Shown here in pieces: positions 1-9,406 of a DNA stretch of 9,406 bases. The stretch is from IMG/VR virus record IMGVR_UViG_2648501787_000010; one strand, given 5' to 3'. Numbering within the stretch: position 1 is the stretch's first letter; each line of letters starts with the position of its first letter. The notes beneath the pieces are model-generated. The model saw only the letters and a list, made by a program, of their open reading frames with translations, was not told the origin of the DNA and did no database searches. The position numbers and the translations under genes were made by a program. Source of the stretch: a virus (taxonomy: Duplodnaviria > Heunggongvirae > Uroviricota > Caudoviricetes).

Positions 1-282
1 CTACCGCCGCAACCGTTCCGGCTTCTTCCACTGGTAAGTATTTTTCGCGCTCTCCCTCCGTTGTTGAGAACGGCGACGGTATGCCAGCAACTCAAGGACT
101 CTTGTTCGTATGTTGCGCATATCCACGCCGTTAAGCTCAATACCATCACGGCGCATCACCTCAGCAACAACACGCACATAATTTTCAGCGGTCACGCTGT
201 CCGGCTGTGTGGCCTGTTCGTCATGCTGCTGGCTGATTCCGACGACGCGGCGGATTAATCCCAGTAGTTCGGCTTCAGTCAT
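1..282 (-). CDS. hypothetical protein (93 aa) immediately downstream of the Nu1-like small terminase gene
   Basis: Complete ORF: ATG at 280-282, stop TAG at 1-3 (minus). GAGGG Shine-Dalgarno-like motif a few nt upstream of the ATG. Sits where lambda would have the large terminase gene, but shows no resemblance to gpA N-terminus as I recall it. No recognisable motif. Confidence 0.5.
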   Translation of the reverse strand: MTEAELLGLIRRVVGISQQHDEQATQPDSVTAENYVRVVAEVMRRDGIELNGVDMRNIRTRVLELLAYRRRSQQRRESAKNTYQWKKPERLRR

Positions 283-355
283 TGTGCCCTCATCGTTCCG
301 ATAGCCTGGTGTCGTCGGGTCCTTCCTGGAATTATGGCCCGTTACGGGGCGGCGG

Positions 356-898
356 TTACTCGCCTTTGTTCTGTAGCAACTTCTCAGGCGCGTTTCCGGT
401 AGTTTCCATCAGGTAATCAGCCAGTATCTGTGGCAGGTTTTCGTCAAGTCTTGCACATGCGTTACATGCTTTGGCTATTTCCCTTTTTAGTTCATCCAGC
501 ATATACGGCCTTATATCGGGAAAGCGCCTTTGCATTGTGAGCGGGAGGCTGTCCATGATTGATGAAATCTGACTCGCTAGTTTTGAAATCGCGTAGATGC
601 AAAACTTTGTATCAATCACCTCGCCGCGTTCGCGCTCGTTTTTAAGTTCCTGCGCTTCCGCCTGGGCCGTCATTAATCTGATTCTTACGCGTAAAAGTTC
701 ATCATCATCAATCTCGCCTTTGTCGTTTGTAAGCTGGTTAATTGCATTGTTAACCCTATTGTCTATCACGCTAGCAACATCATAAAACGCCTCACGGCCT
801 TTACGCTCAACGGGAGTTACTCCCCACTTGTCGAACGCTGTCGCACTTACGCGGCAGCTTTGCGCCATAGTTTTTTTGTTCATCAGGTGCGATTTCAT
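356..898 (-). CDS. terminase small subunit, lambda gpNu1-like
   Basis: Translation aligns by eye along its length to lambda Nu1 as recalled from memory: N-terminal MNKK...KWGV..ERKGREAFYDVASVI versus lambda VNKK...NWQEQG..GGGKGNEVLYDSAAVI; central RLMTAQAEAQELKNERERGEVIDTKFCIYAISKLASQISSIMDSLPLTMQRRFP versus lambda RLTRAQADAQELKNARDSAEVVETAFCTFVLSRIAGEIASILDGLPLSVQRRFP. Lies directly downstream of a cos site, as in lambda. Start is ambiguous: in-frame ATGs at 898, 883 and 868 and a GTG at 910; 898 has a G-rich SD-like motif, while 883 gives the MNKK N-terminus that best matches lambda. Confidence 0.9.
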   Translation of the reverse strand: MKSHLMNKKTMAQSCRVSATAFDKWGVTPVERKGREAFYDVASVIDNRVNNAINQLTNDKGEIDDDELLRVRIRLMTAQAEAQELKNERERGEVIDTKFCIYAISKLASQISSIMDSLPLTMQRRFPDIRPYMLDELKREIAKACNACARLDENLPQILADYLMETTGNAPEKLLQNKGE

Positions 899-925
899 CA
901 ATATCCCCACTTAGTTAAGGTTTCA

Positions 926-1000
926 GGTTGGTGTGTTGGTGTTATCTTTCCCTTTTTATTCATAGAGATAGAGCGAAAAACAAAACCACCACCACCAACC
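926..1000 (-). repeat. imperfect inverted repeat between cosN and the terS start; candidate cosB-like binding elements for the small terminase
   Basis: Plus strand 926-943 GGTTGGTGTGTTGGTGTT and 984-1000 AACCACCACCACCAACC (reverse complement GGTTGGTGGTGGTGGTT) are inverted copies separated by about 40 bp of AT-rich DNA. They occupy the position of lambda cosB (R sites) but do not resemble the lambda R-site sequence as I recall it. Confidence 0.45.
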
Positions 1001-1085
1001 CGAAAAGGCTCATAAATAGCGAAAATCCGCAAGGTCGCCGCCCCGTAGCCTGCCGGATCGCCGGAAAGGACCCGCCAGCCAGAAC
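1000..1085 (-). other. lambda-type cohesive end site (cosQ/cosN); predicted 12-nt cohesive end GGGCGGCGACCT at 1032-1043 on the minus strand
   Basis: Minus-strand sequence GGGTCCTTTCCGGCGATCCGGCAGGCTACG-GGGCGGCGACCT-TGCGGATTTTCGCTATTTATGAGCCTTTTCG matches the junction of the lambda right end (...GGGTCCTTTCCGGTGATCCGACAGGTTACG) and left end (GGGCGGCGACCTCGCGGGTTTTCGCTATTTATGAAAATTTTCCGG), recalled from memory, with only scattered substitutions. Orientation and distance to the Nu1-like gene match lambda. Confidence 0.85.
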
Positions 1086-1099
1086 GGGCCCTAATTTCA

Positions 1100-1444
1100 T
1101 CAACCAATCAACTTATTGCGTCCTTTCAGGGCATTACGCCTGGCGCGTTCAATCTTGAGGCATAACGCCGCATCAGGTTTTTCGGGGGTGGGAACAAGGC
1201 AATAATTTGATGCGCGCGGAATGTTGTTAATCCACGCAACAACCTCGCTTAAATACCATGCCTTGCGCCCTTTCGTAACCTGTACGCGTTCGGGGAACTC
1301 TCCGCGAGCTTCAAGGTTTAGCAATGTGCGACGGCTAAGGGTTGTAAGCTCCACTACCTGATCCATATCAACAAGGCGCTCGCTTAAACTCATTTTGTCA
1401 TCGATATCTAATAGCTCTCGTAGCTGACTATCTCTTTCAATCAT
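1100..1444 (-). CDS. AlpA-family (MerR-like winged HTH) DNA-binding protein with C-terminal extension, 114 aa
   Basis: Core LVDMDQVVELTTLSRRTLLNLEARGEFPERVQVTKGRKAWYLSEVVAWI fits the AlpA/Xis-type pattern (HTH, then FP..V....GR.AW...EV.AWI). GAGGT SD about 6 nt upstream of the ATG at 1444, embedded in the 3' end of the gpD-like gene (9-bp gap), so it is co-transcribed with the capsid genes. Stop TGA at 1100-1102. Confidence 0.8.
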   Translation of the reverse strand: MIERDSQLRELLDIDDKMSLSERLVDMDQVVELTTLSRRTLLNLEARGEFPERVQVTKGRKAWYLSEVVAWINNIPRASNYCLVPTPEKPDAALCLKIERARRNALKGRNKLIG

Positions 1445-7773: not shown

Positions 7774-7802
7774 AAAAAAATAGCGACCGCAAGGGGCCGC
7801 TA
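7774..7802 (-). terminator. rho-independent terminator for the small ORF at 7809-8051
   Basis: On the minus strand AUAGCGGCC-CCUUGC-GGUCGCUAU (8-bp stem with one G-U pair) followed by seven U, starting 7 nt after the stop codon. Confidence 0.6.
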
Positions 7803-7808
7803 TTGTGA

Positions 7809-8051
7809 TTACCGTTTCCACTTCTTAGGTCGCCCACCACATTTAAGGCTGGTGGGCCTCAGCACCTTGTCGATGCTTTCAGCCAGATTTTTCGATGCGC
7901 CACGCGAGCGTAAAAAACTGACTACCTCGTGTTTTGTGGGGGCTGTTGATTTGTCTTCCGGATCGTATGTTGACCAGAATTCACGATTTGCCATTAACGC
8001 CAGTTGCAGCCCTTCACCGCAGACATTGGATGATTTTTCGTGCCAGACCAT
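7809..8051 (-). CDS. hypothetical small basic protein (80 aa) with C-terminal AT-hook-like GRPKKWKR motif
   Basis: ORF sits between a perfect TATAAT -10 (minus strand, 8112-8117) and a strong terminator, so it is an independent transcription unit. RBS at the first ATG (8049-8051) is weak; an internal ATG at 7992-7994 is an alternative start. Confidence 0.45.
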   Translation of the reverse strand: MVWHEKSSNVCGEGLQLALMANREFWSTYDPEDKSTAPTKHEVVSFLRSRGASKNLAESIDKVLRPTSLKCGGRPKKWKR

Positions 8052-8104
8052 TTCAATAAATCTCGATTTCTCATGAGTCGGGTTTTTCCTTGTCTGTTGA
8101 GGAG

Positions 8105-8154
8105 ATAGGCGATTATACGATGGTTTAGCATGGTTTGCACTGGTTGTACTGGTT
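8105..8154 (-). promoter_or_regulatory. promoter for the 80-aa ORF (TATAAT at 8112-8117, minus strand) with four phased TGGTT repeats across the -35 region
   Basis: Plus strand TGGTTTAGCA TGGTTTGCAC TGGTTGTAC TGGTTTTTTG (copies starting at 8121, 8131, 8141, 8150; spacing 10, 10, 9 bp), immediately downstream of the integrase stop (8165-8167). Confidence 0.45.
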
Positions 8155-8164
8155 TTTTGTACAG

Positions 8165-9406
8165 TTACACCGCACGGATACCCCTTTTACCACTGGCTAT
8201 GGTCACTCCGGTTGCTGCGGCTTCCACAAATTCACCCCACCAGCGCATAAGTACTACACGTTTTTCCAGGTAGTTACTTCGGTTATATGCTCGCCTTACC
8301 TCGTTCGTGTCCACGTGTGCGAGTGCGGCCTCGATTACGTCCGGCTCGAATCCTTCCTCGTTCGCTGCTGTACTGAATATGGCGCGTAATCCGTGAGACA
8401 CCAGCACACCAGCGTATCCCATCCGGCGCAATGCAGCGTTAGCGGTCTGGCTGCTCATTGGCAGCATTGGATTTTTAAGGCTGGGAAAAACATGTTCCCT
8501 GTGTGCGCTGATTGGCTTCATTGTTTCCAGTACAGCCATCGCCTGACCGCAAAGAGGGATCACATGGTCACGGCGCATCTTCATGCGTCCGGCTGGAATC
8601 GTCCATGTTTCGGCATCGAGATCTATTTCTTCCCAGCGTGCGGCGGCTGCTTCGGCTGGGCGTGCTACGGTCAGCAGTTGCCACTCGATTAGCAATCTGG
8701 TTTGCCGTTCTATGCTGGCGACCGATAAATCGTGCATTAGCTGCGGTAGCTGTTCCGGTCGGATGGTTGGCATATGCTTTTTAGTGGGGGAAGGGAATGC
8801 CTTGCGGACGTTCGCGGCGGTGTTGATGTCAATCAGCCCACTGTTGGCAGCAAAATCCATCACTTCATTGATGCGTTGTAAAACGCGTTTCAGAGTTTCC
8901 AGGTTGCCGCGTGCTTTAATGGGTGTGAGTATCTCAACAAAGCGGCGAGCGGTGAGGGTATCTATTGGCGTGTTTCCGATGTACGGGAATACGTATTTTT
9001 CCAGGGATCGCCAGATATCCTTAATCGTGTTGTAAGCCAGATTCTGGCCTTTTTTCATCTCGTACCAGTCCAAGGCAACTTTTTCGAACGTGTTGCCCTT
9101 TTTCCTGCTCTCTGCTTCACGTTTCCGGCGTTCGTAGTCCTGTGGGTCAGTTCCCTTTGCTATGAGTGACCTGTATTCATTCCGTCGCTCTCTGGCATCA
9201 GACAGGGAAACATCATTTAGCGATCCAAGGCTGATAATAGTCCGTTTTTTATCTGCCGGGCGGTAGTACGTAAAACGCCAGATTTTTGATCCGGAGGGCT
9301 TCACCAGAAGAAATAATCCTCCGCCATCCTGCAGGGTATATTCCTTTTCCCCTGGTCGTGCGTTTTTGATCTCCGTAATAGTTAGTGGGGTGGTTTTTCG
9401 TGCCAT
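8165..9406 (-). CDS. int: site-specific tyrosine integrase, P4 family (413 aa)
   Basis: N-terminal arm-binding-type domain (TLQDGGGLFLLVKPSGSKIWRFTYY), C-terminal catalytic region with HGLR box and tyrosine in RRAYNRSNYLEKR, and the WW/EF tail typical of P4-type integrases. ATG is at the last three bases of the window (9404-9406), so its RBS, promoter and adjacent att are not visible. Stop TAA at 8165-8167. Confidence 0.95.
   Translation of the reverse strand: MARKTTPLTITEIKNARPGEKEYTLQDGGGLFLLVKPSGSKIWRFTYYRPADKKRTIISLGSLNDVSLSDARERRNEYRSLIAKGTDPQDYERRKREAESRKKGNTFEKVALDWYEMKKGQNLAYNTIKDIWRSLEKYVFPYIGNTPIDTLTARRFVEILTPIKARGNLETLKRVLQRINEVMDFAANSGLIDINTAANVRKAFPSPTKKHMPTIRPEQLPQLMHDLSVASIERQTRLLIEWQLLTVARPAEAAAARWEEIDLDAETWTIPAGRMKMRRDHVIPLCGQAMAVLETMKPISAHREHVFPSLKNPMLPMSSQTANAALRRMGYAGVLVSHGLRAIFSTAANEEGFEPDVIEAALAHVDTNEVRRAYNRSNYLEKRVVLMRWWGEFVEAAATGVTIASGKRGIRAV

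Follow-up and report, generated by a model that had tools for sequence, protein, structure and literature searches.

The DNA analysed here, hereafter called the window, is a stretch of 9,406 nt from a viral record assigned to the Caudoviricetes (IMGVR_UViG_2648501787_000010). It carries 15 credible genes, all intact, 14 of which lie on the minus strand (the strand of all features given below unless indicated otherwise). Matches to Pfam, PHROGs and NCBIfam profiles, from which the family assignments were taken, place at one end of the element, as its first gene, a tyrosine integrase of the P4/CP4-57 type (413 aa, 8165-9406; Arm-DNA-bind_3, Phage_int_M and Phage_integrase in Pfam), followed by alpA (68 aa, 7433-7639; PF05930 AlpA, E = 5.6e-9) and by pri-rep, which encodes a P4-family primase/D5-like helicase (584 aa, 4105-5859; D5_N, DUF5906 and Pox_D5) that reaches the 'P4 family' cut-off of TIGR01613. 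Immediately 3' of the primase gene lies a replication origin with iterons (3860-4094, not assigned to a strand), in which TRTCTACC occurs more than 12 times, in either orientation, akin to the experimentally defined origin of Gram-negative phage-inducible chromosomal islands (PICIs), which is likewise found directly 3' of pri (PMC6092414). Beyond the origin are the gene for the single-strand DNA-binding protein SSB (3119-3541; PF00436) and a late module with homologues of the major capsid protein of the lambda gpE family (346 aa, 1805-2845; PF03864 Phage_cap_E, E = 3e-41) and of the head decoration protein of the lambda gpD family (113 aa, 1454-1795; PF02924 HDPD, E = 2.6e-16), a second AlpA-family helix-turn-helix (HTH) protein (114 aa, 1100-1444; PF05930, E = 8.7e-8; phrog_2790), a cos site, a Nu1-type small terminase (TerS; 180 aa, 356-898 with an alternative GTG start at 910; PF07471 Phage_Nu1, E = 9e-24; phrog_57, E = 6e-53) and, as the last gene, orf93 (1-282; phrog_1561, E = 1e-56).

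The initial annotation had named a P4-type integrase, AlpA, a P4-family primase with adjacent iterons, SSB, gpE-like and gpD-like proteins, a Nu1-like small terminase and a 'near-lambda' cosN, and we found each of them, intact and on the minus strand. Two entries needed amending: AlpA is encoded where expected, but the AlpA-family genes number two, and cosN is present, but its match to lambda is exact rather than near. The tight packing described at the outset is also real, as pri and the DUF4222 gene overlap by 4 nt, and so do ssb and orf92.

The cosN sequence GGGCGGCGACCT (1032-1043) is identical to the lambda cohesive-end sequence at 12 of 12 positions. Together with a cosQ-like element, GGGTCCTTTCCGG (1061-1073), it forms a segment (1032-1073) in which 28 of the 31 nt on the cosQ side agree with the right end of lambda. 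Of the 22 nt that follow cosN, 20 are shared with lambda, and the farther cosB sequence is unrelated to it. This cosQ/cosN arrangement is conserved in the published islands EcCIIHE3034 and EcCICFT073 (cos1) and in an island at the EcCICFT073 site (locus L008). The cosB region of the element (911-1031) is island-specific, with inverted R-like elements (993-1005 and 921-933; TTTCAGGTTGGTG / CACCAACCCGAAA) around an A-rich spacer. Inverted elements of this GGTTGGTG type are common to TerS-encoding islands and unlike lambda cosB, and we infer that they may be the binding sites of TerS. The TerS protein itself is 37-40% identical to lambda Nu1 and 46-48% identical to N15 gp1 over its full length, and this end-to-end alignment covers the C-terminal segment that in lambda binds gpA, the large terminase (TerL). 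A sequence search of PDB chains returned nothing useful for TerS, recovering neither the lambda Nu1 structure 1J9I nor RppC, and the assignment therefore rests on Pfam, PHROGs and the full-length alignment. A further 11/12 match to cosN (4706-4717) sits in a perfect hairpin, CACGGGGTCGCCGCCCGTG (4702-4720), inside the pri coding sequence, where it encodes TGGDPV. We considered it as a second cos site, like cos2 of EcCICFT073, and took it as a probable chance match, given its position in a coding sequence without cosQ or cosB context; the window has one exact cosN only.

According to the list of open reading frames (ORFs) and the family searches, no frame of the window encodes TerL, a portal, a protease, a scaffold, a tail protein or a lysis protein. 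The complete element could be delimited in E. coli strain MEW, the best genome match of the window (97% identity across its whole length), where it is placed between the autotransporter gene yejO and tRNA-Pro(proL)/yejM. A search of this copy for attachment (att) repeats and a flanking tRNA gene indeed revealed, beside tRNA-Pro/yejM, 26-nt direct repeats, CGTATAGCT(T/A)AACGTGTAGCTAAAAA, spaced 10,512 bp apart (6974-6999 and 17486-17511 of the MEW locus, L001), one between int and the tRNA gene and the other about 1 kb past orf93. The complete MEW island, of about 10.5 kb, holds no TerL, portal, protease, connector, tail or lysis gene, and neither a lambdoid immunity region nor lambdoid replication genes. 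The initial report that TerL, portal, protease, scaffold and tail genes are missing is thus upheld for the window and for the complete island, which does not carry the full lambdoid gene set of an ordinary prophage. The MEW repeats occupy the same position downstream of tRNA-Pro as the att site of EcCIATCC25922 (6899-6924 and 18156-18181 of its locus, L011). Several bases differ between the two sites inside a doubled TA(T/G)A(A/G)C-type motif, alongside an integrase identity of 83%, and the integrase and its core att site may have co-diverged. The island DNA of about 1 kb between orf93 and the distal repeat in MEW (L001 7000-8000, outside the window) has ORFs of at most 75 codons, is without annotated genes and gave no Rfam match; across the window and the MEW locus the flanking tRNA-Pro and an L25 leader were the sole matches of an Rfam scan.

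E. coli PICIs were described as phage satellites in 2018 (Fillol-Salom et al., 2018; PMC6092414), and the core of a PICI has since been defined as an integrase, an AlpA-type regulator, a primase-replicase, a capsid-morphogenesis gene and a small terminase, other structural genes being forbidden (de Sousa et al., 2023; PMC10085698). Using the 2018 description together with the five-component PICI model of SatelliteFinder, we found all five components (integrase, AlpA as the AlpA/MerR/Stl-type regulator beside int, pri-rep, capsid gene and terS) in the window, and the MEW copy, at 10.5 kb and without other structural or lysis genes, falls within the expected size of about 8-15 kb. Gene order is identical in the window, EcCICFT073, EcCIIHE3034 and EcCIATCC25922, and runs in EcCICFT073 from int and alpA through a divergent ylcI, an icd-like gene, small ORFs, DUF4222, pri, an ORF, ssb, the capsid and decoration genes and an ORF to cos, the packaging gene and a 93-aa ORF. 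For EcCICFT073, the prototype of these islands, experiments have shown both induction and transfer, the helpers being lambda, phi80 and a lambdoid prophage resident in the host (PMC6092414, PMC6739421). It shares with the window this synteny, the primase (95% identity to its functional pri product), orf93 (78%), the gpE-like and gpD-like genes, lambda-like cosQ/cosN and an origin 3' of pri. It differs in its RppA-based packaging, its two cos sites, its integrase (25% identity) and integration site, and its perC gene, whereas the window lacks Rpp and combines a single cos with a full-length Nu1-type TerS. RppA of EcCICFT073 is a winged-HTH protein of 144 aa without the TerL-binding tail, which pairs with the TerS of the helper as a heterodimer and directs it to the cosB of the island. 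Taking as Rpp proteins those of 139-154 aa with a winged HTH, without a TerL-binding tail and encoded just after cos, we found in that position of the window the 180-aa Nu1 homologue, and neither BLASTP nor tblastn detected similarity between RppA and any product of the window, TerS included. Since the gene after cos is rpp in Rpp-type islands, TerS is its positional equivalent.

The EcCIATCC25922/EcCIED1a.1 group resembles the window in chromosomal locus, doubled-motif att, gene order (down to the divergent ylcI and Icd-like genes) and a 180-aa 'terminase small subunit', and Table S1 of PMC6092414 indeed lists several PICIs, EcCIATCC25922 among them, at 'yejM-luxR'. EcCIATCC25922, which shares the yejM/tRNA-Pro integration locus, has an integrase of 83% identity to that of the window; the identity is 75% for AlpA, 95% for the primase, 91% for SSB, 87% for TerS and 81% for orf93. 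It differs in its capsid and decoration alleles (54-56% identity), in a 137-aa hypothetical gene before cos in place of the 114-aa AlpA-family gene, in the small genes between icd and DUF4222, and in a few bases of the att core. EcCIIHE3034 has the same cos-TerS-orf93 module (TerS 87% identical, cos conserved through cosB) and an identical orf75, but another integrase (24% identity) and site (cspD-clpS), another capsid/decoration allele and, again, the 137-aa gene before cos. This is in line with the report that the IHE3034 and 18098 islands 'encode TerS' and that the CFT073 and 042 islands do not (PMC6092414). The capsid, decoration and AlpA-like alleles of the window recur at 76-96% identity in the island of locus L008 and in a helper-embedded PICI (11capE type; PMC10111431) that differs from the window in placement and packaging genes. 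The latter, from strain 20Ec-P-124 (L009, NZ_AP017610.1 909775-929159; locus 6700-17400), interrupts the major capsid gene of a lambdoid prophage and has two other hypothetical genes instead of TerS and orf93, whereas the window island belongs to a chromosomal tRNA-proximal site. The per-gene identities thus make the window a mosaic of modules from published islands.

The capsid protein is 42% identical to lambda gpE over 336 aa (full length), 54-56% identical to its counterparts in EcCICFT073 (55%), IHE3034 and ATCC25922, and 84% identical to those of L008 and L009; the decoration protein is 41% identical to lambda gpD and 54% to c1500 of EcCICFT073. Measured against the 84%-identical allele, the ratio of non-synonymous to synonymous substitution rates (dN/dS) is 0.09 for the capsid gene and 0.12 for the decoration gene. 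The other late genes give 0.16-0.29 (0.16 for the 114-aa AlpA-like gene, about 0.25 for orf93), and all late genes are under purifying selection. The per-gene identities also show that the capsid and decoration genes switch allele jointly across islands; the 114-aa AlpA-like gene, between the decoration gene and cos, accompanies this capsid/decoration allele in other islands. The gpE-like and gpD-like genes are a conserved, selected cargo of the late module. They stand in the order capsid-then-decoration (1454-2845), the opposite of the D-then-E order of lambda, and the reversed order is seen in all PICIs compared. The 114-aa protein resembles neither RppA nor the 137-aa protein that EcCICFT073 and IHE3034 have at the same place. 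Because of its dissimilarity to RppA, and because TerS holds the rpp position after cos, we rejected it as an Rpp analogue. Our phage collection contained no near-identical element; at the nucleotide level only 79 bp over cos were matched, in two prophages of Ravinvirus. Among phage proteins, N15 gp1 comes closest to TerS (48%) and gpE of the lambda group to the capsid (41-42%), and no phage protein in the collection reaches 60% identity; the late genes therefore represent satellite lineages rather than recent captures. Among 5,426 complete E. coli genomes, the cos-terS segment is present at a coverage of at least 80% in 761 and the capsid-decoration-HTH segment in 205, and the compact arrangement recurs across hundreds of genomes with differing integrases and sites.

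Taken together, our results indicate, with a probability that we put at about 0.9, that the window covers nearly all of a classical Gram-negative PICI of E. coli, a member of the EcCICFT073/EcCIATCC25922/EcCIIHE3034 family with a TerS-type cos packaging module. The view of the initial annotation that the element is a satellite of cos-type lambdoid phages gains support from the island of about 10.5 kb without other morphogenetic genes and from the synteny with EcCICFT073. Its suggestion of a distinct class does not survive the comparison: the layout int-alpA-pri-ssb-capsid-decoration-cos-TerS is already that of the published EcCIIHE3034 and EcCIATCC25922 and matches the five-component PICI definition. 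The mix of genes is genuine, but the element is an ordinary member of a known PICI family and not a new class, because the same layout exists in that published family, which spans hundreds of genomes.

A new class of capsid-forming satellite, which would build a shell from its own gpE-like and gpD-like proteins, rely on a lambdoid helper for portal, scaffold and protease and use its own TerS for packaging, could account for capsid and decoration genes that are intact, full-length and strongly selected (dN/dS 0.09 and 0.12), for their alleles changing together across islands, and for a capsid so distant from its closest phage relative (41-42%) as to form a satellite-specific lineage. Yet the same genes occur in the PICI family already described, deletion of either of them from EcCICFT073 was without effect on transfer or interference, with the packaged DNA phage-sized, and the TerL, portal, protease and head-tail connectors of the defined capsid-forming PICIs (cf-PICIs) are all absent, all of which makes this class improbable. 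Cf-PICIs of the EcCIEDL933 type carry TerL, portal, protease, head-tail connectors and HNH (PMC10085698 among other sources); they resemble the window in the int-alpA-pri backbone, the capsid protein and TerS, and differ in that none of those five components is found in the window or the complete island. Membership of the cf-PICIs was rejected on the missing TerL, portal, maturation protease and head-tail connectors. That the late genes belong to lambda families, with cosQ and cosN nearly those of lambda, could also betray a decayed lambdoid prophage that has kept cos, Nu1, E and D beside an unrelated integrase/primase island. We give this explanation very little credence, since all genes are intact and under purifying selection, as the initial annotation had anticipated in arguing for a selected arrangement rather than prophage decay, and since no phage in the collection reaches 60% protein identity, the gene order is E-then-D rather than D-then-E, the same compact arrangement occurs with various integrases and sites, and the borders are precise direct repeats. 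A lambdoid defective prophage was likewise rejected as a class, the immunity, replication and head-tail-lysis genes not being in the island. The P4-type integrase, AlpA and P4-family primase domain could equally be those of a P4-like satellite of P2-type phages, which is just as hard to credit: homologues of Psu, Delta, Sid and Ash/epsilon were not found in Pfam, PHROGs or NCBIfam, for which reason P4-like membership was rejected, and the cos is lambda-type, not P2/P4-type, with late genes of lambda families.

Four points weigh against the assignment to a classical, TerS-type PICI. The window island is known from sequence alone, and its life cycle is read by homology; the att repeats were observed only in the 97%-identical MEW copy and lie outside the window; the binding of TerS to cosB and to a helper TerL is inferred from alignment only; and in the one published attempt at mobilisation, the two TerS-encoding islands tried, IHE3034 and 18098, failed to transfer when mitomycin C was used to induce their resident prophages (PMC6092414), which leaves any helper and packaging mechanism of the TerS-type module hypothetical. 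A literature search for 'EcCIIHE3034' gave no result, and the cos packaging of TerS-type islands was not a subject of later papers on PICIs.

If the element is such a PICI, its life cycle can be outlined by homology with EcCICFT073 for every step except packaging specificity, for which we propose a step of our own. The island would reside integrated downstream of tRNA-Pro(proL)/yejM by means of its own tyrosine integrase until a lambdoid helper that infects or is induced turns on alpA. Its product, presumably the island's master activator and shown in EcCICFT073 to have a role in induction (PMC6092414), would then switch on the rightward operon and drive excision and replication, for which int and the pri-ori module would be needed. 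Replication from the iteron origin by the island primase-helicase and SSB would generate concatemers, whose cos sites would be cut by the helper large terminase, with packaging of the island DNA into heads and tails made by the helper. Specificity would come from the full-length Nu1-like TerS of the island, which is predicted to bind the island cosB and to recruit the helper TerL through its C-terminal domain, a role that in Rpp-type relatives is fulfilled by the Rpp-TerS heterodimer. Pac-type pathogenicity islands of Staphylococcus aureus (SaPIs) encode a small terminase of their own, TerS(S), by which the large terminase of the helper is steered towards the DNA of the satellite. Direct recruitment of TerL by the island TerS is plausible and would be the cos-phage counterpart of this SaPI strategy; the analogy would be functional only, as SaPI packaging is of the headful (pac) and not the cos kind and the proteins are unrelated.

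Within this known family, the role of the gpE-like and gpD-like proteins is a puzzle, and it is no evidence for a new family. In EcCICFT073, c1499 codes for a putative capsid protein and c1500 for a head decoration protein, and deletion of c1499 or c1500 left the transfer of the island and its interference with lambda unaltered, all packaged DNA being phage-sized (PMC6092414). Captured capsid genes have been proposed to serve helper-embedded islands as back-up copies (PMC10111431). A head-building activity may have been overlooked, as the assays were limited to the Rpp-type EcCICFT073 with lambda and phi80. It is conceivable, if unlikely, that the two proteins co-assemble with the portal, scaffold and protease of a helper into satellite-specific or chimeric heads, which, together with a TerL-recruiting TerS, would make TerS-type PICIs functionally intermediate between classical PICIs and cf-PICIs. 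As a discovery the element carries little weight, being of an already known kind: the standard model for PICI detection includes its architecture, which was entered in the catalogue in 2018 and is carried by about one complete E. coli genome in seven. What value remains lies in PICI capsid and decoration homologues that are under strong purifying selection yet without a reported phenotype, and in the packaging and helpers of TerS-type cos islands, the Rpp mechanism being the only one worked out.

Downstream of int lies orf80 (7809-8051), which has no family match in Pfam, PHROGs or NCBIfam; a homologue of 73% identity has the same position in EcCIATCC25922. The sole plus-strand gene encodes a small protein of the YlcI/YnfO family (6764-6943; NF041551, E = 1.5e-17; phrog_949), and EcCICFT073, IHE3034 and ATCC25922 also have a divergent gene at this position. 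Next to it is an Icd-like small protein whose start is approximate (6388-6591; NF033153 phage_ICD_like, matching only the C-terminal part of about 45 aa) and which is 92-97% identical to its homologues in the same three islands. A longer ORF of 346 aa (6388-7428) runs antisense across the ylcI-like gene; because the family match is confined to the Icd-like C-terminus, it is probably spurious upstream of that part. In the relatives, this region is annotated as an Icd-like pseudogene and a short intact Icd-like gene. Then come orf75 (6149-6376; phrog_2196), 100% identical to the EcCIIHE3034 protein, and a DUF4222 protein (5856-6143; PF13973, E = 1e-24), whose gene overlaps the primase start and is found at the same position in every PICI compared. 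The primase itself is also 95% identical to that of EcCIATCC25922. Between the origin and ssb, orf92 (3538-3816; phrog_1231, E = 1e-50) keeps its place upstream of ssb in the relatives, and at the far end orf93 is 78-81% identical to the terminal ORF of EcCICFT073, IHE3034 and ATCC25922.

A 69-aa ORF (898-1107) spans cosQ, cosN and cosB and is known to RefSeq as a 'hypothetical protein' and to PHROGs as a family of its own, phrog_11159. Because cleavage at cos would cut it in two, this ORF is likely an artefact of annotation that overlies a DNA site under conservation. A scan of the window for sigma-70 promoters yielded no enrichment over shuffled sequence, and no promoters were therefore assigned. 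Terminator-like hairpins were found just past ssb (GGCCGGAGCAATCCGGC followed by TTTT on the minus strand, 3083-3103) and, with a T-run, after orf80 (7779-7804). Directly upstream of alpA, the motif GTGAGTAC(C/T)GTTTT is repeated (7690-7760), and a similar tandem pair stands upstream of alpA in EcCIATCC25922 (L011 16424-16463); the repeated motif may be an operator of the alpA promoter.

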